The notes: a model not told the origin generated them from the sequence alone. Shown: positions 3,591 through 54,101, counted from the stretch's first letter. The stretch is 64,000 nt of DNA from a virus (IMGVR_UViG_3300044797_000034:247-64246); one strand, 5' to 3'. Made by a program: numbers and translations.

Positions 3591-3631
3591 TCGTGGTTTC
3601 TCCGTAGGGTAGGGGCTAGTGATACCGTGAA

Positions 3632-10429: not shown

Positions 10430-10624
10430 TTATTTCTCAGTTATCTCGTAGAGAAAATCTAAGTCACTCTGACTAAGGTGTAAGTCGTAAAATACGAACG
10501 CTACCTGTAGAGCTGCAGCTCGGAACAAATCAGCCGTAGATACACGATCTGCCCGCTCAGTTACCTGAGCGAACAGATCGGCAATGAACATTTTATCATC
10601 GTCTGAGTAATCCCTATGAAACAT
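10430..10624 (-). CDS. small hypothetical protein
   Basis: 64-aa acidic ORF overlapping the polymerase stop and filling the gap to terL. Confidence 0.5.
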   Translation of the reverse strand: MFHRDYSDDDKMFIADLFAQVTERADRVSTADLFRAAALQVAFVFYDLHLSQSDLDFLYEITEK

Positions 10625-17200: not shown

Positions 17201-17616
17201 AATTTGTTACAGGCAGCCATAAGAATAGACATGGCCATTCGGTGAGTGTCTAGCTTATCTAACTGCTCAGATTGCTTACCGTTGAATATACGAACGTTAG
17301 TTTGATCCTGTACGGCCTTAGCACTGTCTGAGTAAGACCATCCTAGTGCATCCTGTAGGAACTGTAGGAGATCTCTTTCATGATAAAGACAACCGTAGCA
17401 GTGTATAGTGTTACTGATTACATCGAAATCAAGAGAAGGCGTGGAGTCGCCATGAATCGGGCAGCACATGCGGATTGCAGTGTTACCACGAGACTTTGGG
17501 TTCTGAGTTGTAAAATGACGTTGTAGAAAAGTTAGAAGTGATGGTTGTCCAATGAGCGATAATAATTTTGTAGTTTGTGCACGTGATGCGCCTTCGTTTG
17601 ATTTCTTCTTAGCCAT
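14155..17616 (-). CDS. DNA primase-helicase fusion (CHC2 Zn finger, TOPRIM, P-loop ATPase)
   Basis: CPIH...CYGC; VVVEGEND, FADD, KDPDD; GDTHSGKT and AFDE. Confidence 0.85.
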   Translation of the reverse strand: MAKKKSNEGASRAQTTKLLSLIGQPSLLTFLQRHFTTQNPKSRGNTAIRMCCPIHGDSTPSLDFDVISNTIHCYGCLYHERDLLQFLQDALGWSYSDSAKAVQDQTNVRIFNGKQSEQLDKLDTHRMAMSILMAACNKFLQDMILYWKSGETSDPTNYSTSVLESVTPTLVWLFEERKHDPGLVNKFPYGVLPSPNVLKHLVSNRLAELLERNRIAGRMMIPSTRAEAVSRRAHEIIDRIDISWVYSVCFFSGHSHNIPGRIVLRKPHGHKDIFVTEAFDDNERVGFFGLYRPFSLYSAGDLRSMTPVVVEGENDCISFLEGLVHAGRTEPLVMATGGSKNDLDDLVSAGFNKIILFADDPLTGNGNDYIKGRLATAFELDVRIFNAWPILRTVGVKDPDDAIQVQGFDAVYKAVIETPANLVTIDTWAREYAMAAYHLLDDQTDVREKTRIASDFGKYVRHPALQQQYIKDISKAFDINSGVVQQEILKRQDTEESFILRIAETLKRDCHIVCKEEDNRNSYLLLFSREKDRVVKLPMHDGEAAAIQLAGIYGPIYEFFQSSIGLPGFLAPPEGMEDSPVLQTIKNTYKDICGYLKIALQHLYEGIMDRKFCTELGQGVHVIQDSSDRTVVYIVNGPSVYKCEYEPEIELIEKAPPAVWKKLPGPSDGNFLFNVGFESPVESWSREIRSVADLNDGNDIDITASVRTIYDLFNTHWNFKHQRLDAQFLSYHLFAAGVSRAFQSMVLVSFLGDTHSGKTTILNVFAGHSSKALQLLEQSVSFSNFTQASVYQKCNNTTLAIAFDEYEDERDTTHKAKQVADINDMLRQIINDEPTAITRATKEGTVRSYNLRSFIFTAAIKSPSKAQDSNRRYEIEMDKIEGHADVKQGILGNMQIEQYHVIRRAVTLGLLRYIPRLRHLSKEIERELLTNKVVPFNVDNRTLRNFVPAATIAALIGDDWRAFIRDCCTARKQKFDAVSKETTSQLLYDHVMFTSNVLVNDGGRGGARVSITTLLADVSTWSEINRSGCGFYFLPELKIGVIHWITAQTSLLHPWPAYANVPHRTLKESFDRYPRSIRTDDYEKLGVWPHVQGLIHGVKKSDVSVLNLEEFLNDANLNRTPSTVAVAQSAIEATADDGVPERRTKTNADDNLP

Positions 17617-20554: not shown

Positions 20555-20594
20555 TGTTTTTGTACCTTTTCTCTTTCGAGAGGTGAATGTAATT

Positions 20595-21437
20595 ATGGCA
20601 CGTAAATCTGAGATGTCAAGCGTAAAACCGAATCACACACAACAAAATCATTCGGGCAATCGACTCATCAATACTTACTTCAAAGAAGTTGCTGCGTTAC
20701 CTATCCCTACTGCCGCCAAAGAAAAAGAACTCTTTACAGCATATGCTGCGGCTCCTGATAGGAACCCTGATGCTTATGGCACAGACGGTCCTATAGCCGG
20801 AAAGATCAAACAGGAGATCGCCCAAGGATATTTACGTTTCGTGATGAAACAGGCTCTTGCTAGAACTAAAGACGAGCACCTACTCTTAGATCTCTTGGCT
20901 GCGGGGAATGAGGGTCTCCTCATAGGAATAAAGAAATTCGACGTAAATCGCGGAACAAGGTTTTTGACTTACGGTGCCTCATGGGTGAAGGTTTTGATAC
21001 AAAACGCTCTACATGCGGCAGGACTTGGTCGACAGCCGATTATACATGAGAGTTTCGAGGAGATTGACACTGATGCTGATCCAGAGCCATTTCCTGATAA
21101 GCCCGCCCGAAGTCAGATGATATACATGTCCGATCACACCCAATTAGCAGTTGTGGATGCCAATATAGAATCGGACATGTCGGTGGCCCACTTCAATATG
21201 TTACGTGAGCTAAAGGAGGCGTGTCTTACACGGAAGGAAACACTTATCTTGATTTATTATTATGGACTTCGTGGCGGGGTACGTCAGACGTTTGGTCAAC
21301 TATCAAAAATTCTTCTTGACCTTGAAGGCGTATACATAAGCTCTGAGCGCGTAAGACAAATCAAAGAGCACGCACTTCGTAACTTACGTAAGGCCTTCAA
21401 GCGCAAGAAGATAAGCAGTGTTACTGACGTCTTCTAA
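20595..21437 (+). CDS. RNA polymerase sigma70-family factor
   Basis: Region 2 DLLAAGNEGLL...KFDVNRGTRFLTYG..W; region 4 ISSERVRQIKEHALRNLR; GAGG upstream of the ATG at 20595. Confidence 0.88.
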   Translation: MARKSEMSSVKPNHTQQNHSGNRLINTYFKEVAALPIPTAAKEKELFTAYAAAPDRNPDAYGTDGPIAGKIKQEIAQGYLRFVMKQALARTKDEHLLLDLLAAGNEGLLIGIKKFDVNRGTRFLTYGASWVKVLIQNALHAAGLGRQPIIHESFEEIDTDADPEPFPDKPARSQMIYMSDHTQLAVVDANIESDMSVAHFNMLRELKEACLTRKETLILIYYYGLRGGVRQTFGQLSKILLDLEGVYISSERVRQIKEHALRNLRKAFKRKKISSVTDVF

Positions 21438-24387: not shown

Positions 24388-26469
24388 CTACTTCACTATT
24401 GCCGCTCTAGCAACAGGTCGATCTACAGTGCTTTGATATTTGCACCCAGGTTGAAACGGTCTAACCTCAGCTATGCCACATTTAGTCTTCCACTCACAAG
24501 GGGCACATGCTACTTTTTCACTCAGTGTATAGGCCAGTGTATCTTTGTAGTTGAGTGTTCTAGAAACGAATTCGTCCAGTGTATCTTTACCTAACAACCT
24601 GTAAACAGTTACGTGTCTAGTCTGACCTATACGAACATTTCGGTCAAATGACTGTCGATAAGTAGTTCGATCCCAAGGCAAGGAGTAGTAGATTGTATAG
24701 TTAGCCGCCGTTAAAGTAACTCCTATGCCGGAGGATACTTGACCTAAATAAATACGGCAACCGGGGTTTGTCTGAAACTCTTTTTCAATAGAAGCAATCT
24801 TGTTTGTATTAGAGCCATCTACCCGCACGTATGTCCATTTATTCTCCTTGCATACTGCCTCAAGGTCATCTAGTTCAGGTAGATAGGTAGCCCACACAAT
24901 GAGCTTATTGGAAGAGTCTTCCTCAAGGATATTCTCAGCCAAGTCCTTGAAGACTTCTAGTTTTGGATTTTCTACGTCCCGTAATATTTTTCTCGGTGGA
25001 TAAGTAGGTTGAACCTTGCAATCCTTGGTGTACGGGTTTATCCCGCTATCTACACAACCCTGTAAATATTCGCATCCGTTACAAATGGTTTTATCAGGTT
25101 CGATTATCAAGAATCCGCTAGTGATCTGTAGAAGTTTATTTACCCTAACTGCTCCGTGTGCAATTGAAAGAATTGTGTTATCGGTTGCATTATCCACCAC
25201 AGGTAAGTGCCTAGTAAATGGAGATTCACTAGCGGACATTTCTTCTACTAATTGATTGTAACGCACCTTCTGTTTTGGCTGAAGTGAAAATAGTACATCA
25301 CTTACTACTACGGGAGGCAAGTCTAAACATTCAGATTTTTTCATACGACTTGCTATCAAGTTTACCTTGGCATTTATCTCATGAAGATTTTTCCATCCAA
25401 GTATCAAATACTTGTTGTAAGGATCTTGTTCTGTATGATGTTGTTTGAACTGCCAAAACGGGCGTTTCTCTAGCCATGGATGGAGTATGCGTAAGAGAGA
25501 GTAGTACTTCAACGGATCATTGCCAGCAGTACCCGTTAGAATATACCTACGCGCAGCTTTAGTGGATAATTGAAGACAAGCCTTGGTTACCTCTGAGTCG
25601 TAAGTGCCTAATACGTGTCCTTCGTCGAAAACAACTACATCGTAATCAATTAATGTGAATATATCCGATGGTGGCACCCCGCCTGTTTGAAGAGTTTTCA
25701 TTGTCTTGTCGTACAGGGCAGGATTTGCTTTAGCTAGTGCAGTGAGCTTCCTTTTTAAGGCTTTATCTGACGCGGCACCGCCAACTTTCCAATCCTCTGG
25801 TAATACGTGGTTAACGGCCGACTTGTACTCAGATCGAGCAATACCGTACGTAGTTAGTACTACATCCGCAGCATTCGCCTCCTGTATCCTCTTATCCCTG
25901 TCACCATGTGTGAGATCAATACACGTCAGTTCTCCACCGCCATACTCTAATACCTGCCTCTCCCAGGTTGGGAGTACCACTCTCGGGCACACTACAAGGA
26001 CTCTCTTCACACAGCCTATAGCCTTTAACCAACGCAGGAGTTCGATTATGACACGGGTCTTGCCGGTACCCATTTCCCAGAGAAGTAGCATCCGGTAATA
26101 GGCGTACGCCTTAGCTAGCCCCATTCTCTGATGGGCGAACAATGGTGGTCCATGAAAAATATGATCCTTGGGTAATGGCAGGATTACCTCTTCCTTTGTT
26201 GCGTATTGGGCTTCAGCTTCGGCCCACAATGACCCTGTTATACGGGCGGCACGTATGAAAGCTTCCGCGGAAGCGTCTGTCGGGGTGCTACCTACGGCAG
26301 TTAGGTCTTTTACAACCCAATCAACGAAGGGAAAATAGGCAGGGAAGGCCCACTTACCTTCTTTTTGTAGATAAGTGGCGCCCCAAACCTTGTCCCAAGG
26401 TGCTAACTGGTCGCTGGAAAGGGTCAGAATAGGTGTAGAACCTAGTACAGAACCGTTTAATACTGGCAT
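24388..26469 (-). CDS. SNF2-family helicase
   Basis: EMGTGKT, FDEGH, LTGT, GIGVTLTAA and QSFDRNVRIGQ motifs. Confidence 0.92.
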   Translation of the reverse strand: MPVLNGSVLGSTPILTLSSDQLAPWDKVWGATYLQKEGKWAFPAYFPFVDWVVKDLTAVGSTPTDASAEAFIRAARITGSLWAEAEAQYATKEEVILPLPKDHIFHGPPLFAHQRMGLAKAYAYYRMLLLWEMGTGKTRVIIELLRWLKAIGCVKRVLVVCPRVVLPTWERQVLEYGGGELTCIDLTHGDRDKRIQEANAADVVLTTYGIARSEYKSAVNHVLPEDWKVGGAASDKALKRKLTALAKANPALYDKTMKTLQTGGVPPSDIFTLIDYDVVVFDEGHVLGTYDSEVTKACLQLSTKAARRYILTGTAGNDPLKYYSLLRILHPWLEKRPFWQFKQHHTEQDPYNKYLILGWKNLHEINAKVNLIASRMKKSECLDLPPVVVSDVLFSLQPKQKVRYNQLVEEMSASESPFTRHLPVVDNATDNTILSIAHGAVRVNKLLQITSGFLIIEPDKTICNGCEYLQGCVDSGINPYTKDCKVQPTYPPRKILRDVENPKLEVFKDLAENILEEDSSNKLIVWATYLPELDDLEAVCKENKWTYVRVDGSNTNKIASIEKEFQTNPGCRIYLGQVSSGIGVTLTAANYTIYYSLPWDRTTYRQSFDRNVRIGQTRHVTVYRLLGKDTLDEFVSRTLNYKDTLAYTLSEKVACAPCEWKTKCGIAEVRPFQPGCKYQSTVDRPVARAAIVK

Positions 26470-26499: not shown

Positions 26500-28218
26500 A
26501 TGAGTGGCGATCCTACGTTTTCAGATTTAGCGTTGAACAGCAAAGATGCTGCACACCCCAACCCTCTTTTCGATTTCCTAACTGGCTTCGTGCCACGAAA
26601 ACTAAAGGATTTATTCAAGTGGGCAGAATATCTTGTGTTCAATTCTGCACAGGTATATGCCGTTGTAAAGAAATTTGGAGAATTTCCAATAACTAAGATA
26701 GTTTACGAGTCTGCGGTACCAGGTGTTTTAGCAGTACATAGAAAAATTTTTGAGAAAAATCTAGGAGTCCTTAGCTTTTTGACCAAGGCCTCATTCGATA
26801 AGTTTATTTATGGCAATGGTTTTTACTCCATTTATACACCATTCAAGCGTTTTCTTGAGTGTAAAAGCTGTAAATCACGTAAGGACATTAACTATATAGA
26901 CTATAAATTCAAAGTCAAGAGCCTTGAGTTTACATATACCTGTACGAACTGTAAAAAGCTCACTAAAGGTAGGATGGTTGATCTTAAGTTAAAGGACGCC
27001 AGTAAGCTCAGAATGATTCGCTGGGATCCAAAACTAATTGACATTGAACATAACCCTATTACGGATGAGAGCGTCTACTACTACACAATTCCAAAGTCAA
27101 TGAAAGAGCAGATTGATAAAGGGAACAAAGTCCTGATCAACTCAATGCCAAAGGGATTTTTGGAAGCGGTTAAGGAGAACAAGATTTTCCGTTTTGAAAA
27201 AGATGCCTTGTATCACATGAAGGTGCCCGGTCCGGCAGGGGTAGAAGCGCACTGGGGCTTCCCACCCATTACGTCGTCTATCAAACTGTTCCTATTTGCT
27301 GCGATTCTGCGAAAGGCAAATGAAGCTATCGCCCTGGAGCATATTGTTCCATTCCGCGTGTTATTTCCACAAATGAATAGTCCAAACGGCGACCCACTTA
27401 CGACGATATCTTTGGCTAAATGGAGAACTGAACTCGAACATAATCTAAAACGGTGGCGACGTGACCCGTTGGCTATACAATTTGCCCCTGTACCATTAGG
27501 CGTAACGAATTTAGGCGGCGAGGGGCGTGCGCTGATGGTATCTGCTGAAATCAAGGACGCAGAGAGTAACATTGTCACCGCTATGGGTGTTCCAATGGAA
27601 TTTATTACTGGGGGATTAGGGCAAACTCGTGGTGAAATTTCATTGCGCATGTTGGAAAATCAATTGCGATGCCACACTGAGGATTTGAACAAGTTATTAC
27701 AGTGGATAGAAGATAAAGTTGCTCGTTATATGGGTTTTGAACCTGTGCCAGTACATCTATCTGATTTTAAGATGATAGACGATTCTGAGAAAAAGCAATT
27801 GGTCATGCAACTTTGGGCCCAAGGAAAAGTATCAGATTCGACAATAGCAGAGATGTTTGAGCTTGACTTGGACAAGGAACGTGATTTAATACTTGAGAAC
27901 GCAATTGCTCAAGCTAAGGCTCAGCAAAAGACTGAGGCTGAGATGAAGAAGATACAGGGTTCGTTAGTGCAGCAAGTACAGCAACAAGCTTCTGCAACAG
28001 GGTTGGATTATAACGATCCGCAACAGGTAATTGCTGCCGCGGATCAAAAGGTACAGGAGTTTATGGCGCTGGATCCAAATACAAGGAGATCACAATTAGA
28101 CGGCCTGAAAACTGAAGATATCATCATGTTCAGCGTCGTAAAAGAGCGTATGGAGCAGGCGCAGCAAACACAAGAGGCAGAAGTGAAGCAACAAGTCCGA
28201 CAAGGTCAAGGGCAATAA
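26500..28218 (+). CDS. portal protein
   Basis: 572 aa; FIYGNGF, WGFPPI, IVTAMGVPMEF pattern; Zn-ribbon insertion; Gln-rich C-terminus. Confidence 0.75.
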   Translation: MSGDPTFSDLALNSKDAAHPNPLFDFLTGFVPRKLKDLFKWAEYLVFNSAQVYAVVKKFGEFPITKIVYESAVPGVLAVHRKIFEKNLGVLSFLTKASFDKFIYGNGFYSIYTPFKRFLECKSCKSRKDINYIDYKFKVKSLEFTYTCTNCKKLTKGRMVDLKLKDASKLRMIRWDPKLIDIEHNPITDESVYYYTIPKSMKEQIDKGNKVLINSMPKGFLEAVKENKIFRFEKDALYHMKVPGPAGVEAHWGFPPITSSIKLFLFAAILRKANEAIALEHIVPFRVLFPQMNSPNGDPLTTISLAKWRTELEHNLKRWRRDPLAIQFAPVPLGVTNLGGEGRALMVSAEIKDAESNIVTAMGVPMEFITGGLGQTRGEISLRMLENQLRCHTEDLNKLLQWIEDKVARYMGFEPVPVHLSDFKMIDDSEKKQLVMQLWAQGKVSDSTIAEMFELDLDKERDLILENAIAQAKAQQKTEAEMKKIQGSLVQQVQQQASATGLDYNDPQQVIAAADQKVQEFMALDPNTRRSQLDGLKTEDIIMFSVVKERMEQAQQTQEAEVKQQVRQGQGQ

Positions 28219-31094: not shown

Positions 31095-31202
31095 TACGAC
31101 ACCTTCCTACAGAACAGTGTTAGTCGCGACAGCCGTAACAGCCGTATCACTAAATATTCCTAACATTATCTTCTACCGAAAAATATTGCTATTATTTGCA
31201 AT

Positions 31203-34200
31203 ATGACTGGCGATCTTCGACCTGTCCTTACTACTGCGGCAAATATCCGTAAGGACATACATACAAAAATAAAAGCAGCGCTGCACAATATTTTTCCGTT
31301 AGACCTGAAAGGTCGTACGCTGGAGCTAAAGGATGTTGCTGTTTTCCCACAAAACTTTTCTCCAGATGAAGAGAAACACGCATTGCTAACAGGCGGTGGC
31401 CTACATGAGCCGGTTAAGGGCACACTTGTACTACGCGGTGGTGATGGAAAAATAATTGACGAGGCCAGAAACTTTACGTTAATGAAGCTGCCGTTTTTTA
31501 CCGATAGACACACGGTCATAGTGGACGGTAATGAATACCAGGTAGCTAACCAGTTGCGTCGTAAGCCGGGTATTTATACACAACGCTCCGCTAACGGCGA
31601 ATTAAGTACCCTATTCAACCTTTCTAAGGGCGGTAGTTTCTATGTAACGATGGTGCCAGAAACCGGCAAGTTCAACTTAGAGTACGACAACACAAAGATT
31701 CCACTATACCCTATTCTACGTGCCCTAAGTGTTCCTCACGCAGATATAGCAAAACACTGGGGTGCAGGTGTTGCCGATGAGAATAAGAACATCTCAGAGG
31801 TACAATCAACCCAGGCTATAAACAAGCTTTACAAAAAACTAGTACACCCGCACGTACAAAACTTGAGTGCGCCTATAGAAGACAAGATTAAGGCGATAGC
31901 CGACAAGTATGCGGCTACAGAAATAACAGGCGGTGTTACCGAACAGACTGTTGGAGCTCATCACTCAAAGGTTTCGCCGTCAGCATTACTTGATGCATCT
32001 AGGAAGCTTTTATCTGTGCATGAGGGTAAGTCAGAAATAGATGATGCAGATAGTCTTACGTTCAAGTCCTTTCATGCAGTAGATGATTTCTTGAAGGAAC
32101 GACTTGAACTTTTTGCTCGTACATGGGGGCCTAAGACACGACTTAGATTCACAGGTAAAGACAAGATAAGAGATGCTCTCGCACCACAACCTTTTACTGA
32201 AAACATCAAACGATTTGTAACTACGTCTACACTTACGGCGGTTCCTACTGGTATAAATCCAATAGAACTTCTTGACCACTCTGTAAAAGTTACGTCTCTT
32301 GGCGAAGGTGGCATTAGCTCAGATAGAGCCATTCCCTATGAATCACGATTAGTGCACAATTCCCATTATGGAGTTATTGATCCTATCCGTAGCCCTGACT
32401 CGTCACATGCTGGCGTAGACGTTCGTATTACAATCGCAGCTAAGCATGATGATCAAGGTAACCTCTATACCCCGGTTAAAAATCTAAAGACCGGTAAGAC
32501 AGAATTCTTACCTGCCGGCGATCAACATAAGTACATCATCGCTTTTCCACACCAGGAAATGAAAGGTCAAGTAGACGCATTTGTTCACGGTAAGGTGGAA
32601 AAGATAGACGCTAAAAAAGTAGAACACCAATACGTGCACAATGCGCAGGCGTACTCGCCCGCAACGTCTCTGATTCCATTTTTGCACAATATTCAGGGGA
32701 ATCGTGCTATCATGGCGTCAAAGATGCAAACACAGGCGTTACCTCTCGTAGAACGAGAGGCGCCGTTAGTACAGGTAAAATCACATCGTGGAAATGAAAG
32801 TTATGAAAAACTATATGCCAAATTGGTTGTTCCGACTGCTCCTTTTGATGGTGTTATCTCTCGTATTGAGGGTGGACGAATATATGTTTCGCCGACTGGA
32901 AAAGCGTCAACGACTCCTACCGAAGCGTTAAAGATTGCTTCTGATGACGTAGGCGTGCCATACCAAACAGACTTCCCATTTCCGTCTAAGACATTCTTGA
33001 ATCACACGGTCTCGGTTAAAGTCGGGGATAAAGTAAAAGCGGGTCAGACGCTGGCCGGATCTAACTTCACTAAAGATGACACCCTCGCCCTAGGTAAAAA
33101 CCTTCGTGTCGCGTATATGGCATACCACGGTTTGAATTCAAATGACGCCATTGTAATTAGTGAAGGCGCTGCCAAGAAGCTAACGTCTGAGCACGGGTAC
33201 CGAGAGGTATTTCCGATTAACCCAAAAACAGAACTTAGCAAGGAGAAGCACCGAGTATATTACTCAAGTAAGTATGATCCCACACAGTACACACGCTTGG
33301 ATGAACACGGTGTAATAAAGAAGGGTGAAAAAGTAAACCCACATGATCTCTTAGTTGCGGCTCTTACTAAGAGCGCTCCCTCAGGAGCTGACTTGATGTT
33401 AGGTAGGATATCTAAGGCGCTAACCCGTCCGTACAAAGACATGGCGCTGACTTGGGAACATAGTTTTCCTGGCGAAGTAGTAGAAGTTGTGCGTACTCCT
33501 AATCAGATTGCGTTGCTGATAAAAACAAATGAGCCTATGCAGATTGGAGATAAGCTAGCCGCACGTTACGCTAACAAGGGTGTAGTAGCAAAGATAATTC
33601 CCGATCATGAGATGGTACAGGATGAATCGGGTGCACCTATAGATGTGGTTATGACATCAGCCGGTATTACGAGCCGTATTAACCCTGGTCAGTTAGTAGA
33701 ATCAGCACTTGGTAAGGTAGCTGAGAAGACAGGTAAGCCTATTCTAGTAGACAATGCTGATCCACATGACGCCGTAGAATATGCGTCTAAGATGCTTAAG
33801 GATCACGGGCTAAAAGACAAAGAAGTTCTTTACGACCCCGTTAACAAACGCAGCATTACTGGTCCCGACGGTAAGGGCGTATTCGTAGGACGTAGTTACA
33901 TTCTCAAGTTGTTTAAAAGTACAGATACAAACTTTTCAGCTCACGGGATATCAGGATATGATTTGAATGAGCAGCCATTAAAGCACGGCGGTGAGGAAAC
34001 ACCAAAGGGCATTGCTAAGATGGAGTTCGATGCTCTAATAGCACATAATGCTCGTAACGTGTTGAAGGAATCTAGTACAATACGTTCGCAGAAAAATGAA
34101 GAGTTTTGGCGTGCACTGCAGTTAGGTCACCCACTACCTGCCAGCAAACCGTCGTTTGTATGGAACAAATTCTTAGCTCTACTTGAGGGTGCAGGCGTAA

Positions 34201-35600
34201 AGGTGGATAAGACTGGTAGCAAGATCCGTTTACTACCTATGACTGACAAGGACATTATTGGTAAGTCTTCTGGTGTAATAGAAAACAACAAAACCATAGT
34301 CGCTAAGAATTTACAACCTGAACGCGGTGGTTTATTTGATGCAAATGCTACTGGCGGTCCGCAAGGTACTAAGTTCTCACACATACCACTGTCAGAGTCT
34401 TTGCCCAATCCTGTATTCGAAGAACCTATACGCCGCTTACTAGGACTGACCGGGCCACAGTTTGATAAGTTAGTTAAGGAACACGGTGGTGCACATTTTC
34501 ACAAGGAGCTCTCTAAGATAAACATAGACGAGCGGTTAGGTGAGTTACACACTGAGCTTTCTACAGCTAAGGGTGCTGATATAAACAGCAAGGTAAAGCA
34601 GATAAAGTATCTGATGGCATTAAAAGCTGAGGGACTACGTCCAGAGGACGCTTACATACTCAACAATGTACCTGTTGTACCGCCGGTATTCAGACCGATT
34701 CTGCCTATGGTTCACGACCCTAAGCAATTGATGGTATCTGATGCTAACAAGCTATACATTCACTTAATGGACGCGAACCATACGCTGAAAACTACTTTAC
34801 TTCCATCTGACATGGCTGCTAATAGAGAGCATCTTTACAATGCCGTAGGGGCCTTATTTGGTACGCATGATGTGGCTGATGATGAATTACGTGGACAAAA
34901 AGTAAAAGGCTTTTTGTCTTCTATATCTGGTGTAACTTCTCCTAAGTCAGGTTTCTTTCAGAAGAAAATCATGCGTAAAACCATGGATATTTCAGGCCGT
35001 GGTACGATTGTACCTGATGTAAACATATCTATGGACCAGGTAGGCATACCTGAAGAAATGCTATGGAAGATGTACGAACCGTTCTTGGTATCACGGCTTG
35101 TAAAGACAGGCTACCCTGCAATCCAGGCTAAAGAAATGGTCAAGGACCGCGTACCGGCAGCTAAAACAGCTCTCTTAATCGAGTGTAAGGAACGCCCGGT
35201 TTACATTAACCGTGCTCCGACTTTACATAGATGGTCAATCGTTGGAGGTTACCCTATTCCAGTAGAAGGCAAGACTCTTAGGATCTCGCCTCTTATAGAA
35301 AAAGGAATGAACGCCGACTATGACGGCGACGCCCTACAAATACACGCCCCTGTAACAGCGGCTGCAGTACGTGACGTACGTAACATGTTGCCGTCTAATC
35401 TGTTGTTACAAGACCAAAAACGTAACAGTCTTACGTCATTCCCTCAGCATGAGGCTATTCTAGGGGTGGCTCACGCATCTAACGCTAAAGCAACAGGCCC
35501 CGAGAAAACGTTCAAAACTACAGAAGAAATGACTGCGGCATACCGCCGAGGCGAGCTTAAGTTGTCGGATTCTGTAAAGATAGATCCAGGGCACAAGTAA
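31203..35600 (+). CDS. multisubunit RNA polymerase: beta fused to the N-terminal (catalytic) part of beta-prime
   Basis: Beta motifs NQLRRKPG, NRAIMASKMQTQA, GDKLAARYANKGVV and KMEFDAL, followed by beta-prime motifs PERGGLF, PVVPPVFRP, DISGRGTI, NRAPTLHR and catalytic NADYDGD. Confidence 0.95.
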   Translation: MTGDLRPVLTTAANIRKDIHTKIKAALHNIFPLDLKGRTLELKDVAVFPQNFSPDEEKHALLTGGGLHEPVKGTLVLRGGDGKIIDEARNFTLMKLPFFTDRHTVIVDGNEYQVANQLRRKPGIYTQRSANGELSTLFNLSKGGSFYVTMVPETGKFNLEYDNTKIPLYPILRALSVPHADIAKHWGAGVADENKNISEVQSTQAINKLYKKLVHPHVQNLSAPIEDKIKAIADKYAATEITGGVTEQTVGAHHSKVSPSALLDASRKLLSVHEGKSEIDDADSLTFKSFHAVDDFLKERLELFARTWGPKTRLRFTGKDKIRDALAPQPFTENIKRFVTTSTLTAVPTGINPIELLDHSVKVTSLGEGGISSDRAIPYESRLVHNSHYGVIDPIRSPDSSHAGVDVRITIAAKHDDQGNLYTPVKNLKTGKTEFLPAGDQHKYIIAFPHQEMKGQVDAFVHGKVEKIDAKKVEHQYVHNAQAYSPATSLIPFLHNIQGNRAIMASKMQTQALPLVEREAPLVQVKSHRGNESYEKLYAKLVVPTAPFDGVISRIEGGRIYVSPTGKASTTPTEALKIASDDVGVPYQTDFPFPSKTFLNHTVSVKVGDKVKAGQTLAGSNFTKDDTLALGKNLRVAYMAYHGLNSNDAIVISEGAAKKLTSEHGYREVFPINPKTELSKEKHRVYYSSKYDPTQYTRLDEHGVIKKGEKVNPHDLLVAALTKSAPSGADLMLGRISKALTRPYKDMALTWEHSFPGEVVEVVRTPNQIALLIKTNEPMQIGDKLAARYANKGVVAKIIPDHEMVQDESGAPIDVVMTSAGITSRINPGQLVESALGKVAEKTGKPILVDNADPHDAVEYASKMLKDHGLKDKEVLYDPVNKRSITGPDGKGVFVGRSYILKLFKSTDTNFSAHGISGYDLNEQPLKHGGEETPKGIAKMEFDALIAHNARNVLKESSTIRSQKNEEFWRALQLGHPLPASKPSFVWNKFLALLEGAGVKVDKTGSKIRLLPMTDKDIIGKSSGVIENNKTIVAKNLQPERGGLFDANATGGPQGTKFSHIPLSESLPNPVFEEPIRRLLGLTGPQFDKLVKEHGGAHFHKELSKINIDERLGELHTELSTAKGADINSKVKQIKYLMALKAEGLRPEDAYILNNVPVVPPVFRPILPMVHDPKQLMVSDANKLYIHLMDANHTLKTTLLPSDMAANREHLYNAVGALFGTHDVADDELRGQKVKGFLSSISGVTSPKSGFFQKKIMRKTMDISGRGTIVPDVNISMDQVGIPEEMLWKMYEPFLVSRLVKTGYPAIQAKEMVKDRVPAAKTALLIECKERPVYINRAPTLHRWSIVGGYPIPVEGKTLRISPLIEKGMNADYDGDALQIHAPVTAAAVRDVRNMLPSNLLLQDQKRNSLTSFPQHEAILGVAHASNAKATGPEKTFKTTEEMTAAYRRGELKLSDSVKIDPGHK

Positions 35601-35626
35601 TTAAGGCTTATCCTTAACCTAAGCAG

Positions 35627-36349
35627 ATGAGTTCCAAAGAAGCATTACATCCGTATCTGCAAACCATAATGGGTAACCTACCGCCGACTATAGGTGAGGG
35701 TGAGGGTTCGCCTGATATGGAGCCACCGCCTGAGCCAGTACCGCCGGGTATGACTACTGAGCAGCCTATGGAGGGTGAGCAGGCTGCGACGACTGATATG
35801 CCACCCCAACAGCCTGGTATGGGTGGGCAGCTTCCGCCAGAGGCTCAGATGTTAGCGGCTATGGGTCAGACACCTGGTATGCCTGATCCAAATGATCCTC
35901 TACGCAATACCAAAGATGAAGGTGTGTATAGCGTAGATGAAATGGGTATTCTTGAGATACTCAGTAAAATATTAACTGGCAAGTATGCCATTTTGATAAT
36001 GTACTATCACTACGGTGCTACGATGCTGTCTTTATCACGAGATAGCATTTACAAACACTTTTTAGAACACGCAAAAGAGGAACGTGAATCTGCTTACATG
36101 GTGGCTAAGCTGATTGTTGCTATGGGAGGGCAAGCTGCGCCTAAGGTTGGTCCAGTACGTCCTGCGGTTGATATGGCTTCTATGTTTTCAGAACTGCTGA
36201 AGGCGGAACAGAAGGTACAAGGCTTTTGGCGAGAATTGAATATGGCAGCTGGACAGAACTTAGGGTTGCAGGCATTCGCGCAGGATCAATGTCAGCTAGA
36301 CTTTCAACACGCAAACGATTTGCGACGGTGGATTAGAAGCGAATGTTAA
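35627..36349 (+). CDS. ferritin-like four-helix-bundle protein with Pro/Met/Gln-rich N-terminus
   Basis: YYHY...HFLEHAKEERESA..VAKLIVAMGG...LKAEQK...DFQHA pattern. Confidence 0.65.
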   Translation: MSSKEALHPYLQTIMGNLPPTIGEGEGSPDMEPPPEPVPPGMTTEQPMEGEQAATTDMPPQQPGMGGQLPPEAQMLAAMGQTPGMPDPNDPLRNTKDEGVYSVDEMGILEILSKILTGKYAILIMYYHYGATMLSLSRDSIYKHFLEHAKEERESAYMVAKLIVAMGGQAAPKVGPVRPAVDMASMFSELLKAEQKVQGFWRELNMAAGQNLGLQAFAQDQCQLDFQHANDLRRWIRSEC

Positions 36350-36990
36350 AGGTAGCTCTATTTGGATTAGATAAGACACCAAAGTTAGACGCAGCACATG
36401 CAGAACTAATTAGGAGTCATGCGTCACCAGAACACGTAGCCGCAATCAATGCTTTGCCTACAGATGCAAAGGGCATTGCTGCTTATCCATTTTCTGATAT
36501 CGAAGGGCATCACACTTTAGTATTCTACAGTCCTACTAAAGGCAATTTAGAAGTTCCTGTACCAAAAGATTTAATGCTTCACATGTTTCCTGAACTTAAA
36601 GATGAAAACACAGTACTATATCAGGAGGGACATGAAGGGCTTAACAGAGCTACTAATTACCTGTCAGAAAAAAATAAAGTTAAAGCAAAAACAGCTTCAG
36701 ATTTCAATTATATGTTTGAAAACATAATCAAGATGGCTGCGGCGGACGCGCGTTGTCAATACGGCATTGGACAAGAGGAGCAGAATCCTAACCCCGTGGA
36801 ACAGCTTACTCATGCTATGCAAAACATGGGTGATGATGCTAAGCCATTCTGGCTGTATGATTCTAAGAAAAATGATCCGAGTCGGTCAGATACGTCTTGG
36901 GGTCCGGCTACACCACTGAACTCTGGCGATGCAGCTGATAGAAATACTCCGTTTTCAGCAGGCTTGAACATTGTATTTGGAGGCGTGTAA
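36343..36990 (+). CDS. hypothetical K-x-A-containing protein
   Basis: KVA, KTAS and KMAA motifs; coupled to its neighbours. Confidence 0.6.
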   Translation: MLKVALFGLDKTPKLDAAHAELIRSHASPEHVAAINALPTDAKGIAAYPFSDIEGHHTLVFYSPTKGNLEVPVPKDLMLHMFPELKDENTVLYQEGHEGLNRATNYLSEKNKVKAKTASDFNYMFENIIKMAAADARCQYGIGQEEQNPNPVEQLTHAMQNMGDDAKPFWLYDSKKNDPSRSDTSWGPATPLNSGDAADRNTPFSAGLNIVFGGV

Positions 36991-37385
36991 TGTCGCAGCA
37001 AAAATTGATAAACGTGTTTGCTCAATTTTATCCAGAAACTTCAAAGTATGGAAAGCTGTTGAAAACTGCTGTAGACTTCGGTGTAGTCGCCAAACACATC
37101 GTAACGCCTCCGGCTAACCTTCTTCAGGCAATGGGCGCTGGCCTTCGTGGTGCCGGTAATGCCGCTCATGCAGTTACATCTTCCATGCCAGATCACGGGC
37201 AACTAGCACGTATGCTGGCGTCTCTACCATCAGCCGTTGCTGGTGGCGCTAAGAGCTTCTATGATGCTGGTGGCGTTGGTGCTGGCGCACTGACAGGACT
37301 AGGTGCTTCAGCACTATACGGTGGCAAAAAACTATACGATGAATACGCATCACCTGCGGGGTACTACAAGCCGGGCGGATACTAA
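36990..37385 (+). CDS. Gly/Ala-rich protein, putative virion component
   Basis: KTA followed by a GxxxG-rich hydrophobic segment; TAATG-coupled on both sides. Confidence 0.6.
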   Translation: MSQQKLINVFAQFYPETSKYGKLLKTAVDFGVVAKHIVTPPANLLQAMGAGLRGAGNAAHAVTSSMPDHGQLARMLASLPSAVAGGAKSFYDAGGVGAGALTGLGASALYGGKKLYDEYASPAGYYKPGGY

Positions 37386-39193
37386 TGGCATCTGTTGGTC
37401 ACCTGCTGGTAAATGAGGTCTTGCCGGATAAGTACAAGATCACTGGACCAGTAACAGCTAAGAGTTTACATGATTCAATGGTCAGCCTGGCCAAGGAAGA
37501 CCCGCAGCTATACGCCCATGTTGTACACAAGCTAAAGCAGCGTGGTGATGAGATAGCAACACTCGAAGGTATATCAGTAGGCCTTGATGACATTAGACCT
37601 GAGTATGCCGCCCGCGATGCAATTCTAAACCCTGTCATCAAAGCGTTCAACGCTACGAAGAATCCAAAAGAGCAAGTGAAGCTTGTTGTAGATGCGCAGA
37701 AAAAATTACTTGATTACACAAAGCAACACAAAGGCTCCATGACCGAAATGGCGGCTACAGGGGCTCGTGGGAGCTTTCCTCAATTGATGAAGATGATAGG
37801 TACGCCACTGGCTTCACAATTACCTGGTAAAGACGTAACGCCATGGCTTGTTACAAAAAGCTATTCAGAGGGTTTGAGTCCCGCTGATTACTGGGTGATG
37901 GCCCCTGAATCCCGTGCAAACAGCATTGCAACTACGGTATCTACTGCTGAGCCGGGTGAAATGGCGAAGGTGTTAGTTGCTAACATGACTAGTCAGGTAA
38001 TCACACAGCATGATTGTGGTACGCACAATGGTGTACGTATGATGATAGATGACCCACACAGTATTGATCGCTATCTTGCTAGTGAACAACATGGGCAGGC
38101 ACACAACACGTTGGTTACGCCTGAACTCATAAATATCCTAAAGGCTAAAAAAGCAGAATGGTTACTTGTGCGAAGTCCTATGACCTGCGTTGATCCTCAC
38201 GGTGTTTGTCAGATGTGTTATGGATTAAATGAAAAGGGTCATTTACACGCAATAGGGATTAACGTAGGTACGCGCAGTGCTCAGGCAATGGCAGAACCAC
38301 TTACACAGATGGCCCTCGGATCTAAGCACGCAATTCTTACTGTTAAAGAAAAAACACTTACACCGACAGGTTTTAAAGGTGTACGTCAGATTTTGGAAAT
38401 ACCGAAGATCTTTCAAGGTGAAGCGGTACTAGCCCCTGCCGCTGACACAGTGTCTGAAATACGTAGTGCACCACAGGGCGGTAGTTACGTAAAACTGAAG
38501 CAACATAAAAAAGAACTCTACGTTAATCCAGCCTTAGATTTACACGTTAAGGTAGGTGATCATGTTGAAGCCGGTGATGCTATGACAAATGGCTTGCCAC
38601 GACCAGATGAAATCACGCAACACAAAGGTATTGGCGCTGGCAGACAATATTTCGTAAACGCGCTGCATGACATGTACAATGGTTCGGGGGTAAACCTTGA
38701 TAAGCGGCATTACGAACTTTTAGCTAAATCAGCTCTTAACCACGTACAGTTCGTAGATTCAGATCCTAACCATCCTGAATTTCTCAGAGGCGATGTTGTA
38801 GCATACAATACTTTTGCGGATGCTTATAGAAAGGATGCCGAAACTGTCTCTACTGACAAAGCTGAGGGCCACCGTCTTGCAGCAGACGTTCATCACCACA
38901 CTGTAGGTACGTTGATTACCCCGTCTCTAGTAAAGGAACTGAAGTCCCACGGCGTAAAGGAAGTTTCAGTTTCTAGAGTCGCTCCCAATGTAACATTTGT
39001 ACACAGATCCTTCGTGATGAATCCTTTACTAGATCACGATTGGTTAGGACGTCTAGCACATAGATTTTTACGAAACTCTATCCAACAGGCTGCACATACA
39101 CGAGAAGAGAGCAATTTACACGGTACACACCCTGTGCCGGCTTATGCTTTTGGTGCGGAAATGCAAGAAGGTTTAGATGGCGGAACCTACTAA
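37385..39193 (+). CDS. RNA polymerase beta-prime C-terminal part
   Basis: TGARG, SYSEGLS, DCGT, RSPMTC...GVCQMCYG, trigger loop AQAMAEPLTQMALGSKH, VEAGD and KRHYE. Confidence 0.93.
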   Translation: MASVGHLLVNEVLPDKYKITGPVTAKSLHDSMVSLAKEDPQLYAHVVHKLKQRGDEIATLEGISVGLDDIRPEYAARDAILNPVIKAFNATKNPKEQVKLVVDAQKKLLDYTKQHKGSMTEMAATGARGSFPQLMKMIGTPLASQLPGKDVTPWLVTKSYSEGLSPADYWVMAPESRANSIATTVSTAEPGEMAKVLVANMTSQVITQHDCGTHNGVRMMIDDPHSIDRYLASEQHGQAHNTLVTPELINILKAKKAEWLLVRSPMTCVDPHGVCQMCYGLNEKGHLHAIGINVGTRSAQAMAEPLTQMALGSKHAILTVKEKTLTPTGFKGVRQILEIPKIFQGEAVLAPAADTVSEIRSAPQGGSYVKLKQHKKELYVNPALDLHVKVGDHVEAGDAMTNGLPRPDEITQHKGIGAGRQYFVNALHDMYNGSGVNLDKRHYELLAKSALNHVQFVDSDPNHPEFLRGDVVAYNTFADAYRKDAETVSTDKAEGHRLAADVHHHTVGTLITPSLVKELKSHGVKEVSVSRVAPNVTFVHRSFVMNPLLDHDWLGRLAHRFLRNSIQQAAHTREESNLHGTHPVPAYAFGAEMQEGLDGGTY

Positions 39194-41333: not shown

Positions 41334-41354
41334 GTTTGTACGACAAGGAATGGT

Positions 41355-41390
41355 AAAAAGCCTGTGGTCTGGTGAGACCATGGGCTTTTT
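41355..41390 (+). terminator. intrinsic terminator, possibly bidirectional
   Basis: AAAAAGCCTGTGGTCT-GGTG-AGACCATGGGCTTTTT. Confidence 0.8.
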
Positions 41391-41428
41391 ACTTTGGTGC
41401 GGTGCTATACTTGTAAATAGGGTACCAC

Positions 41429-50835: not shown

Positions 50836-50902
50836 TTCACTTTTAGTACCGATTTACTTTCGGTATCACTAGTATTTCACACAGGCACTCGGAGAAAACA
50901 CA

Positions 50903-52424: not shown

Positions 52425-52453
52425 TTGACAAGAAGAAACCCATGTTGTACACT
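52425..52453 (+). promoter_or_regulatory. sigma70-type promoter
   Basis: TTGACA-17 nt-TACACT. Confidence 0.7.
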
Positions 52454-52469
52454 ACAACATGGGTTTTTT
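52436..52469 (+). terminator. intrinsic terminator after the capsid gene
   Basis: AAACCCATGTTGTA-CAC-TACAACATGGGTTT followed by a T run. Confidence 0.8.
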
Positions 52470-52487
52470 CATTGGTGTTGGTTTACA

Positions 52488-54101
52488 GTGATTCCTACAA
52501 AAGAACAAATTATCTCTGCTATAGATGAAGTAGAAACCCTTAAACAATTTGGCTACCATCCTTCTTCACTGAAGCAGTGTTCCGAAAAATCAGTTATATT
52601 AAGGTGTCCTACTTGTTCAAAGCTATTTGAACGTATGTATAAAACTGTCAAGGCAAGTGTCTATTGTTTTAGCTGCTCTAGACACACAAAACCTATTTCA
52701 GATAGTGTACTCTCTGCTGTTAATACCCCAGAGACATTGAGTGCCTTTGGTTATTCGCCAAATACCTTACTAAGGACTTCACATAGTTTTGTAGTGGTTA
52801 ACTGTAGTTTTTGTGGTAATTTATTTAGACGTAGATTTTATCAGTTGATGGCTAGTACTTATTGTAAGAAGTGTGGCCAGCCTGGCAATCGGGTGTTAGT
52901 TTCGGAAGACATAACAACTGCAATCAATATCATTGCCACTATTGACAGACTCAACTATCATCCAAATACGCTGTCTCCTAATTCCATAAAACACGTAGTT
53001 ATCAACTGTATTGATTGTGGAGAGCTTGTGACTAGACAGCGTAATCTATTAATAACTACATTACGCTGTAAATCTTGTGGCCATAAAAACTGTGATACAG
53101 TGGCTATAAATACCAAACGGCTAAAGACCATAAAAGAAAGACACGGAGGAATGAATAATCCTGTAATTTTAGCTAAAAAAGCAGAGACTTTGTATAAACA
53201 TTACGGTGAAGGAGGGCCTCCTCAAAACCACAAATATAGCGCTACAGCCAACAAAATAGGTGAGATGATTGAGTCCTGGGGACTTGAAGTAATATATGAA
53301 AAAGCCTTAAAAACAGGCCAGTACCTTGACATAACAGTTCCATCTAAAAACTTCTCTCTTGAATATTGTGGTTTATATTGGCACAATGAAATGAGTAAAT
53401 CTCCAAGATTACGTAACTATCACATCAGTAAAATGAAGGCTGCTAATGCAGAGGGCCTCCGGCTAATGACTCTCTTCGAAGATGAATGGAAGGACAATCC
53501 TGACGGAGTAATCAATTTACTAAAGTCCATATTGCTTCCTCCTGAGACACGGCTATTTGCTCGTAAGTGTGAAGTTCGTATGTTAGACAAGAAGATTGCC
53601 AAGGCATTCTTAAATAAAAATCACTATCAAGGCTCTGCTAACAGCATATACATGGCTGCTGGGCTATTTCAGGGAGAAGAGTTATTAGGTGTGATGAGCA
53701 TGGCAAAACATCACAGGCAAAACCATGAGCATTGTTTGATTCTTTCTCGTATGGCTTTTAAAATGGGGGTTCAAATAGTCGGTGGTGCTGGTAGATTACT
53801 CAAATTTTTGCTGGCTCAACCTGAAGCAGCTACTTTCACAGAGCTGATATCCTGGTCAGACAATCGTTATAGTGAAGGGCATGTCTACGAAGCTATAGGA
53901 ATGACGTTAACTAAAGAACTAGGCCCAGACTATTCATACGTAATGGGCGGTAAGGATCGCCGGGAAAGCAAACAGGCACATCGTAAGGTATGCACTGGCT
54001 GCCCTAAGGAGATAACGGAACGAGACTGGGAGTTACAGCATGGTAACCCTCGTATATGGGATTGTGGAAAGAAAGTCTGGACTATGCCGTTACTACGTTA
54101 A
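52488..54101 (+). CDS. Hef-like putative homing endonuclease with three N-terminal Zn-ribbon repeats
   Basis: Three repeats of T(L/I)...Y.P..L...S...V...CxxC; LDI...EYCGLYWH; FEDEW; ARKC...FLxxNHYQG...IWDCG; GTG start inferred. Confidence 0.7.
   Translation: MIPTKEQIISAIDEVETLKQFGYHPSSLKQCSEKSVILRCPTCSKLFERMYKTVKASVYCFSCSRHTKPISDSVLSAVNTPETLSAFGYSPNTLLRTSHSFVVVNCSFCGNLFRRRFYQLMASTYCKKCGQPGNRVLVSEDITTAINIIATIDRLNYHPNTLSPNSIKHVVINCIDCGELVTRQRNLLITTLRCKSCGHKNCDTVAINTKRLKTIKERHGGMNNPVILAKKAETLYKHYGEGGPPQNHKYSATANKIGEMIESWGLEVIYEKALKTGQYLDITVPSKNFSLEYCGLYWHNEMSKSPRLRNYHISKMKAANAEGLRLMTLFEDEWKDNPDGVINLLKSILLPPETRLFARKCEVRMLDKKIAKAFLNKNHYQGSANSIYMAAGLFQGEELLGVMSMAKHHRQNHEHCLILSRMAFKMGVQIVGGAGRLLKFLLAQPEAATFTELISWSDNRYSEGHVYEAIGMTLTKELGPDYSYVMGGKDRRESKQAHRKVCTGCPKEITERDWELQHGNPRIWDCGKKVWTMPLLR

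Follow-up and report, generated by a model that had tools for sequence, protein, structure and literature searches.

A probable phage RNA polymerase with the beta subunit fused to the N-terminal half of beta-prime and the C-terminal half of beta-prime encoded by a separate gene

The window analysed here, a stretch of 64,000 nucleotides of viral DNA (IMGVR_UViG_3300044797_000034:247-64246), was found to contain two genes of a bacterial-type RNA polymerase on the plus strand, a gene for a chain of 1465 amino acids (aa) at 31203..35600 followed by a gene for a chain of 602 aa at 37385..39193. The first chain was found to contain a complete beta subunit (approximately residues 1-1000) followed by the N-terminal half (N-half) of beta-prime (approximately residues 1005-1465), and the second chain was found to contain the bridge helix, the second zinc site, the trigger loop and the C-terminal conserved region of beta-prime (C-half). 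The two genes were separated by three open reading frames (ORFs) of 240, 215 and 131 aa, all five being located on the plus strand, with a gap of 26 nt between the fused gene and the next ORF followed by overlaps of 7, 1 and 1 nt. The window makes up nearly all of a 64,246-base IMG/VR virus record with an estimated completeness of 36%, which implies a genome of ~180 kb, and the source virus is a tailed phage.

The presence of both catalytic barrels in one chain, which had been proposed from the DNA sequence alone (the original prediction), was borne out by the Pfam profiles. The beta part of the 1465-aa chain was found to match Rpb2_2 (121-286), Rpb2_3 (351-411) and Rpb2_6 (598-925, E 3e-44), followed by matches to Rpb1_1 (1108-1199) and Rpb1_2 (1329-1395, E 4e-20) in the C-terminal part. 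In PHROGs, the chain matched a beta-like family followed by positions 167-540 of a beta-prime-like family. The Escherichia coli rpoB and rpoC products were compared against profiles built on 29 fused and 120 C-half chains. In the fused profile, E. coli beta was aligned to residue 1338 of 1342 (node 1000) and residue 32 of beta-prime was found at node 1018; as the end of beta and the start of beta-prime lie only 18 profile positions apart, the fusion is a direct head-to-tail one in which the first 31 residues of beta-prime are shortened. The beta-prime span of the fused chain corresponded to E. coli beta-prime 32-565, and both large inserts of E. coli beta were absent. The clamp coiled-coil, the lid and rudder region and the flap (aligned with E. 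coli 834-932) were all found to be present in this alignment, and the clamp helices and a flap-tip-like helix were retained. The sequence GDKLAARYANKGV was aligned with the E. coli GDKMAGRHGNKGV block, which carries the conserved basic residues of the beta barrel, and the GDK..R..NKG block was also kept.

The beta/beta-prime junction (approximately residues 985-1021; 34155..34265, plus strand) was found to contain the last helix and strand of beta, a turn, and the first strand and helix of beta-prime. An AlphaFold2 model of residues 930-1465, built with 41 aligned sequences, had a mean predicted local distance difference test (pLDDT) value of 84.2, and the junction in it took the form helix-strand-turn-strand-helix (helix 56-67, strand 70-75, strand 78-83 and helix 86-92 of the model, with a pLDDT of 75-94 in the block). 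In Foldseek, this model matched cyanobacterial gamma, plastid RpoC1 and the N-halves of bacterial beta-prime with E ~1e-26 to 1e-29 (~1e-28 for the bacterial N-halves). Bacterial beta headed the matches among solved structures (E 3e-70), with those to beta-prime or cyanobacterial gamma at E 1e-40 to 2e-46; the identity to any bacterial enzyme was only 26-30%.

A short Cys-free segment (PERGGLFD...TGGPQGT...NPVF; 34317..34418, plus strand) was found to stand in place of the N-terminal zinc ribbon of beta-prime, and E. coli beta-prime 64-171, in which the zinc ribbon lies, was represented by only ~42 profile positions. The original prediction had taken the ribbon to be missing on the strength of the Cys-free PERGGLFDANATGGPQGTKFSHI and had described the trigger loop EPLTQMALGSKH as divergent, and both sequences were confirmed by translation as earlier quoted. 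The zinc-ribbon Cys residues were absent in 29/29 aligned family members and in all 67 segments found by pattern among 120 relatives; Patescibacterial and Bipolaricaulota beta-prime sequences from the same search were found to contain four Cys residues at the site. Judged on these alignments, the loss of the zinc ribbon is a family-wide trait.

The catalytic metal-binding motif NADYDGD (residues 1370-1376; 35310..35330, plus strand) was found in the translation, and the residues D1372, D1374, G1375 and D1376 were invariant in 26/26 aligned sequences. The spelling NADYDGD, to which attention had been drawn earlier, is present in the window as quoted but is a minority spelling, being found in 12 of 120 fused chains against 87 with NLDYDGD, followed by 11 with NLDFDGD; the replacement of Phe by Tyr in the motif was shared by 104/120 relatives. 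In one relative (P0007), the beta part was found to contain an insert at residues 594-674 that matched inorganic pyrophosphatase (PF18823, 26.7 bits against a cut-off of 26.8). Pyrophosphatase-type inserts were also on record elsewhere, PF18823 being precomputed in many of the 120 listed matches and PF00719 in P0036, and none was found in the protein of the window. It would be unusual for a polymerase to contain a built-in pyrophosphatase domain.

The 602-aa chain was found to match Rpb1_5 (163-458, E 1e-20) and, weakly, Rpb1_4, and in PHROGs it matched positions 608-1108 of the same beta-prime-like family that was matched by the fused chain. In the C-half profile, E. coli beta-prime 572-936 and 1137-1326 were aligned, and the SI3 insert is thus absent. 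The beta-prime cut was located between E. coli residues 565 and 572, a clean split in which nothing was lost. The bridge helix (approximately residues 166-203 of the chain), the second zinc site (C211, C268, C275 and C278) and the trigger loop EPLTQMALGSKH (residues 304-315) were aligned with E. coli beta-prime 762-936 and 1137 onward, with a divergent sequence. The Cys pattern of the second zinc site was conserved in 112/120 relatives. The trigger-loop sequence is as odd as had been claimed, but it was found to be a trait of the family rather than of the window, with an EPLTQ..L...H pattern across the relatives. The coordinates, the reading frames, the Rpb1_5 match and the E. coli alignment agreed in placing the bridge helix and the trigger loop on a separate gene, three ORFs downstream, as predicted. 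By alignment, the two chains jointly hold every conserved block of beta and beta-prime, minus lineage-specific inserts and the N-terminal zinc ribbon.

The residues 900-1465 were searched against a protein database, with 7999 candidates scored, and 811 clusters of fused-chain relatives were found at E<=1e-5; with the second chain as the query, 626 clusters were found at the same threshold. Among the 120 best listed fused chains (the query and 119 relatives), the beta and beta-prime Pfam domains were found in one protein in 120/120, and the junction was spanned in one profile stretch in every one of them. The 120 C-half chains (the query and 119 listed relatives) had a median length of 600 residues and a range of 482-610, and conservation across the family was found at 55-72% identity. 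A single-protein scan of viral contigs gave one locus only and an alignment-based scan was needed, which gave 135 relatives in IMG/VR, the best 80 loci of which were examined. In all 80, the C-half was a separate downstream frame on the same strand, and joined beta-prime halves were found in none. The fused chain was whole in one frame in 77 loci, divided into two overlapping frames in one, and cut by the contig end in two, one of which still spans the junction. The spacer between the polymerase genes of these loci was 504-5722 nt, with a median of 1491 nt.

An assembly error in the fusion or the split had been named as an outcome that would overturn the original prediction. Logan contigs of one peat-metagenome run, which may be the source sample and is not independent, ran without joints over the junction, over the stop codon and into the beginning of the second gene, and no break was seen. 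None of the public runs listed was an RNA run. Since the junction was spanned in 120/120 chains and the C-half was separate in 80/80 loci, an origin of the layout by assembly error or chance is excluded. Between 29000 and 42000 of the window, neither a group I intron nor any other Rfam family was found; with no intron signature between them, the two genes are separated by genuine fission rather than by an intron. Across the sampled loci, the arrangement is the rule in a large phage family and is not peculiar to this contig. When the C-half alignment was compared with 185,579 species genomes by two search patterns, only three distant Clostridia matches with 23-24% identity were found, and neither a prophage copy nor a host clue was among them.

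The same two genes were found in Salmonella phage Arash (180.8 kb) and in Vibrio phages D69, D148 and D181 (~187 kb), with an identity to the chains of the window of ~33% for Arash and ~30% for the Vibrio phages over 99-100% of the queries. The Arash pair was made up of gp206 (fused chain) and gp216 (C-half). The Arash records label the polymerase genes merely as 'subunit beta', and the fused chain in public records is named 'beta subunit' only; the IMG automatic names of two relatives read 'beta subunit/beta-prime subunit'. The gene order of portal, fused gene, variable ORFs, C-half gene and structural gene was common to the four genomes compared, namely the window, its closest relative (L006), Arash and D69. 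The portal homologue of the window (26500..28218, plus strand; 31.5% identity to the portal protein Arash gp204, E 4e-109) marks the virion-gene neighbourhood of the polymerase genes. In the virion proteome of Arash by mass spectrometry, Gp206 was reported with 3516 spectra, the most of any protein and above the capsid protein, followed by Gp216 with 1210 spectra and a sigma-like protein, Gp10, with 467 spectra (PMC10585845).

Three complete genomes of the family were examined for the remaining subunits, namely G001 (191 kb, with terminal repeats and rated 100% complete), Arash and D69. The alpha (PF01000, PF01193) and omega (PF01192) profiles were matched in none of the three, and the control genomes were positive in 14/14. 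For the window, the absence of alpha and omega genes had been stated earlier and was upheld, as no match to PF01000 or PF01192 was found with Pfam profiles in the 64,246-base record. Exactly one Rpb1_2 locus was found in each of the three genomes, which therefore carry a single polymerase set each. Sigma70_r2 was matched once or twice in each of the three, and the window was found to contain a gene for a sigma-70-family factor of 284 aa (20583..21437, plus strand), a candidate initiation factor, with Sigma70_r2 at 33-36 bits, above the cut-off, and Sigma70_r4 at 18.9 bits, below the Pfam cut-off. Its counterpart in Arash was gp196, an annotated sigma factor, and its family numbered 12 representatives at E<=1e-30, rising to 139 at E<=1e-10, in a library of 1.84 billion proteins. 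A complex prediction of the sigma factor with residues 1005-1465 of the fused chain gave a score of 0.00, which, with no controls, says nothing either way.

The motif CGGTATCACTA was found as a weak promoter candidate at 31142-31152 (plus strand), 51 nt upstream of the fused gene and with C for the first G. In the window, 5 matches with at most one mismatch were found against 0.96 expected, three of which were located in intergenic regions facing a gene (3617-3627, minus strand; 31142-31152, plus strand; 50861-50871, plus strand), 25-60 nt upstream of the genes and in three of 14 intergenic gaps. Canonical sigma-70 consensus sites were not enriched around the genes, with 13 found against 20.8 expected.

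A sister group was found among the longer C-half relatives, in which beta, the N-half and the C-half of beta-prime were contained in one chain of ~2000-2100 aa. These fully fused proteins were 28-32% identical and were encoded on contigs of up to 188 kb, and the two profiles abutted in them exactly at the split point of the window (residues 2-1460 and 1458-2061 in P0256). They contained mostly NADFDGD or GADFDGD, the segment at the zinc-ribbon site was found in 10 of 22 and lacked the Cys residues in all of these 10, and one subgroup was found to contain the trigger-loop ending of the window, LGSKH. The layout of the window, as read from these proteins, is one of two related layouts. In an extended sister group, a separate C-half started at the same split point and carried 500-1100 extra C-terminal residues (P0248-P0250, P0253, P0257, P0259, P0263, P0265, P0269 and P0271), with PF18905 and AAA-type domains in some.

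Three trees were built by quick IQ-TREE searches and rooted on bacterial beta-prime. In the C-half tree (78 rows), 60 phage-type rows formed one clade (100), within which the split and extended proteins formed a clade (99) among fully fused lineages. In the N-half tree (64 rows), the phage clade was again recovered (100), and in it the split proteins (84) and the fully fused proteins (80) formed sister clades. In an approximately unbiased (AU) test on a reduced C-half set (41 rows, LG+G4), a single fully fused clade was not rejected (p 0.54). The phage clade was set apart from 18 bacterial beta-prime rows by a long branch, with 100% in the Shimodaira-Hasegawa-like approximate likelihood ratio test (SH-aLRT) in both trees; clustering with host rpoB/rpoC, the other outcome named in advance, was not seen, the phage sequences lying outside the small sample of bacterial beta-prime. 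The named cellular beta-prime matches were mostly from Patescibacteria (Paceibacteria, Kaiserbacteria, Parcubacteria and Minisyncoccia) with 26-28% identity, many rows being unnamed, and this ranking may only reflect a short, insert-free beta-prime. On the present sampling, the beta/beta-prime fusion is common to the phage groups of the trees and is older than their divergence. By event count, fusion first and fission second would be favoured, with two events against three.

Inteins and homing-endonuclease domains were on record in many relatives. Inserts of several hundred residues were found at the catalytic DxDGD, between nodes 1374/1375, in P0268, P0281, P0285, P0287, P0289, P0296 and P0302-P0304, and the Pfam families on record for these proteins were PF14528, PF05204 and PF14890 (intein, homing endonuclease). 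The fused gene of Vibrio phage D181 was found to be interrupted at L098:2104-2384 by an intron of group I (RF00028, 100.7 bits) with a gene for a homing endonuclease behind it; in the sibling phage D69 the fused gene was intact. Intron mobility was proposed earlier to have split the polymerase genes of jumbo phages (PMC7598289).

The enzyme class itself had been given in the original prediction as already reported, and rightly so, since deep-branching bacterial-like polymerases of uncultured tailed phages were described as the mReC clade with 97 listed contigs (PMC7481178). The likeness lies in the uncultured tailed phages, some near 200 kb, and in a bacterial-like beta and beta-prime outside cellular clades, and the mReC contigs, like the window, were mined partly from IMG/VR. 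The main text of that paper treats beta and beta-prime as two subunits and uses 'fused' or 'fusion' only for crAssphage and 'split' never. In the same source, the 8 capsid proteins found were of the Gp23-type PF07068 and 17/31 terminase large subunits were of PF03237; PF07068 was found in 0/4 genomes of the window's family, in a search with no positive control and of unestablished sensitivity. As to the branching criterion of mReC, the phage clade stood apart from 18 narrowly sampled bacterial rows in a comparison without mReC sequences. A description in print of a beta and beta-prime N-half fusion with a separate C-half was not found, and the mReC supplementary tables may list such proteins; the layout is present in public records and, as far as seen, was apparently not remarked on.

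The phiKZ/AR9 type was found to resemble the present enzyme in being a phage-owned two-barrel polymerase with no alpha or omega and with beta-prime split after the catalytic barrel, and one of the two phiKZ-type enzymes is described as carried in the virion (PMC7598289, PMC7824862). According to these accounts, beta of the phiKZ type is in 2-3 pieces and is never joined to beta-prime, whereas beta of the window is whole and fused; the phiKZ type has two enzyme sets, no sigma gene and a non-sigma fifth subunit, whereas the family of the window has one set together with sigma-70-like genes. In tblastn, bacterial-type rpoC contigs were matched with E ~1e-25 to 1e-29 against ~1e-12 for AR9, so that the similarity to the phiKZ type was lower than that to bacteria. 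In the crAss-like and YonO-type enzymes, both barrels or a beta-prime-like barrel are likewise found in one phage polypeptide, and the crAss-like enzyme is packaged in the virion. They are described as having no recognisable beta/beta-prime profile similarity (PMC7481178), whereas the Rpb1 and Rpb2 matches of the window were far above the Pfam cut-offs.

Cells of Helicobacter and Wolinella, which have a fused rpoBC, keep alpha and omega. This natural beta/beta-prime fusion (PMC1557499, citing Zakharova et al. 1999) resembles that of the window in that the beta C-terminus runs straight into the beta-prime N-terminus in one frame, as was found in 120/120 of the window's family. The difference is that the whole of beta-prime follows in the Helicobacter type (~2900 aa), whereas the chain of the window ends after the catalytic barrel (~E. 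coli beta-prime 565), and the closer analogue is the fully fused sister group with ~2000-2100 aa. A beta-prime split after the barrel has been described for cyanobacteria, plastids and phiKZ-type phages (PMC7598289). In the gamma/RpoC1 and RpoC2 of cyanobacteria and plastids, beta-prime is similarly cut between the catalytic barrel and the bridge helix, but gamma is not fused to beta, unlike the chain of the window. The end of the window's chain was aligned at gamma residue ~553 of 624-625, and on this alignment the cut of the window appears to lie ~70 residues earlier than that of gamma. The first 130 residues of the second chain gave no match to cyanobacterial gamma and only weak matches to actinobacterial beta-prime.

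The first of the three intervening ORFs (240 aa; 35627..36349, plus strand) was found to contain a long N-terminal part rich in Pro, Glu, Gly and Met followed by a ferritin-like domain (PF00210, E 9e-10, 39.1 bits against a cut-off of 24.5), and a ferritin-like homologue was found immediately 3' of the fused gene in 29/80 loci. The second (215 aa; 36343..36990, plus strand) and the third, which was Gly/Ala-rich (131 aa; 36990..37385, plus strand) and whose stop codon overlaps the start of the C-half gene, had no Pfam or PHROGs match; each had a homologue in 1/80 loci, which for the 215-aa ORF was that of L006. With this distribution, an intervening ORF was dropped as a substitute for alpha or omega. 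Past the gene ending at 41333, an A-tract, a G+C-rich hairpin and a T-tract were found at 41350-41395; the element resembles a two-way intrinsic terminator closing the block begun by the polymerase gene, although the scan gave a minus-strand call only. Elsewhere, the window was found to contain genes for a ribonucleotide reductase (1326-3590), a family A DNA polymerase (10614-14210), a primase (14155-17616) and a SNF2-type helicase (24388-26469), all on the minus strand, followed by the presence of a sheath-like protein at 56672-59530. A 558-aa ORF for a Mom-like/HNH protein (52425-54101) had HNH and homing-endonuclease-type PHROG matches and the Mom-family domain PF25680 (32 bits), a combination that gives a hint of DNA modification. 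No tRNA genes were found in the window, and its G+C content was even at ~0.43-0.52.

Taken on their sequences, the two genes probably code for the catalytic core of a two-barrel RNA polymerase of the bacterial type that belongs to the phage itself and in which the polypeptide boundary has been moved. The first chain would comprise the whole of beta running on, without a break in the polypeptide, into the clamp and the DxDGD barrel of beta-prime, and the second chain would supply the rest of beta-prime with the bridge helix, the trigger loop, the second zinc site and the C-terminal region. The covalent tether between beta and beta-prime would replace the assembly role of the bacterial alpha dimer. 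Because the clamp helices and the flap-tip-like helix are kept, transcription would be expected to start with the phage sigma-70-family factors. From the Arash proteome and the conserved location beside the portal gene, the enzyme would be made with the virion genes, carried in the particle and used to transcribe phage DNA on entry. The layout would have arisen by a fusion of the rpoB-rpoC type followed by fission after the beta-prime barrel, and the fission may have been promoted by the mobile introns, inteins and homing endonucleases that are frequent in these genes. Independence from alpha, dependence on sigma and delivery in the particle are suggested by the gene content, the conserved docking elements and one proteome. 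That all of this holds together as a self-contained, particle-borne bacterial-style system, namely a tethered two-chain core with no alpha, omega or zinc ribbon that is programmed by sigma-70, injected and in no need of the host polymerase, is put forward tentatively and is rated somewhat short of an even chance.

Several observations weigh against this interpretation. The absence of alpha and omega was read from Pfam profiles, by which a subunit that is very divergent or supplied by the host would escape notice. The sequence EPLTQMALGSKH was found in place of the bacterial-consensus EPGTQLTMRTFH and TAEPGEMAKVL in place of TANSGYLTRRL, and with the bridge helix and trigger loop off the bacterial consensus, the kinetics may be unusual. 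The motif CGGTATCACTA was rejected as a promoter of the family, as it was found upstream of the polymerase gene in 2/78 relatives, each with one mismatch. The bacterial sample of the trees was narrow, 16/18 rows being close kin of source-named Patescibacteria, and the order of fusion and fission was not fixed by the C-half tree, the N-half tree or the AU test. The Arash counterpart of the window's sigma factor, gp196, is absent from the part of the virion list that was seen and is not Gp10, and the particle list also holds ribonucleotide reductases, ligases and helicases, with carry-over of abundant proteins being allowed for by its authors (PMC10585845).

This last point leads to a possibility regarded as unlikely though by no means far-fetched, namely that the same enzyme is not a virion component and is made in the cell for middle or late genes, the Arash particle signal being carry-over of an abundant protein. 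It fits the many enzymes not expected in virions, which the authors themselves relate to carry-over (PMC10585845), and the derivation of the particle data from Arash only, which is ~33% identical to the clade of the window. It is harder to reconcile with the rank of Gp206 as the most detected protein, above the capsid protein, and with the location of the polymerase genes, which share the strand of the portal and structural genes and lie between them in 4/4 genomes compared. Each genome has one polymerase set, and if the phage does without the host polymerase, it must bring the enzyme in together with its DNA. Separately, the sigma-like gene at 20583-21437 might redirect the host core while the phage polymerase uses another, unrecognised initiation factor. 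Phage sigma factors acting on the host core are described as common (PMC7824862), a non-sigma fifth subunit serves the enzymes of phiKZ and AR9 (PMC7598289), and region 4 of the window's factor fell under the Pfam cut-off. The finding of sigma-70-type genes in 3/3 complete genomes of the family, the retention of the clamp helices and the flap region, where sigma docks in bacteria, and the presence of a sigma-like protein alongside the polymerase in the reported Arash particles argue the other way, and the proposal is considered improbable to the same degree.

The two chains might also form no core alone and borrow the host alpha dimer, and perhaps omega, for assembly. Their much greater nearness to bacterial enzymes than that of the phiKZ type (the tblastn values given above) and the retention of the C-terminal regions of both subunits would speak for such borrowing. 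The phiKZ and AR9 polymerases are reported to work entirely without alpha and omega (PMC7598289), the identity to any bacterial enzyme is low (26-30%), and with hosts as different as Salmonella and Vibrio among the cultured members, one conserved docking surface is not obvious; on these grounds borrowing is thought doubtful. Nothing was found in favour of an artefact of assembly, a pseudogene in decay or a piece of host rpoBC captured not long ago, and these are very improbable, as the ORFs were intact, the family was conserved at 55-72% identity with invariant catalytic residues, the contigs bridged every boundary, and the phage clade, low in bacterial identity, was placed on its long branch with full SH-aLRT support in both trees.

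In cellular RNA polymerases, beta and beta-prime form the two large subunits and depend on an alpha-type platform for their assembly, and the N-terminal zinc domain of beta-prime is linked to termination control. The present family departs from them in a moved subunit boundary, the absence of the platform genes and the deletion of the zinc domain, with sigma-type factors still encoded. The cultured phages Arash and D69 and their relatives make the minimal subunit set for sigma-dependent transcription testable, and the questions are opened of whether a covalent tether is able to replace alpha and of how a 170-kDa enzyme is packed into and delivered from the capsid. The pair of fully fused and fused-then-split enzymes would provide a dated case in which the genes of an essential enzyme underwent fusion and fission. 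If the self-contained, particle-borne system is true, it would be the smallest known sigma-dependent polymerase of the cellular type, and a natural experiment in which a subunit boundary proved movable by fusion followed by fission.

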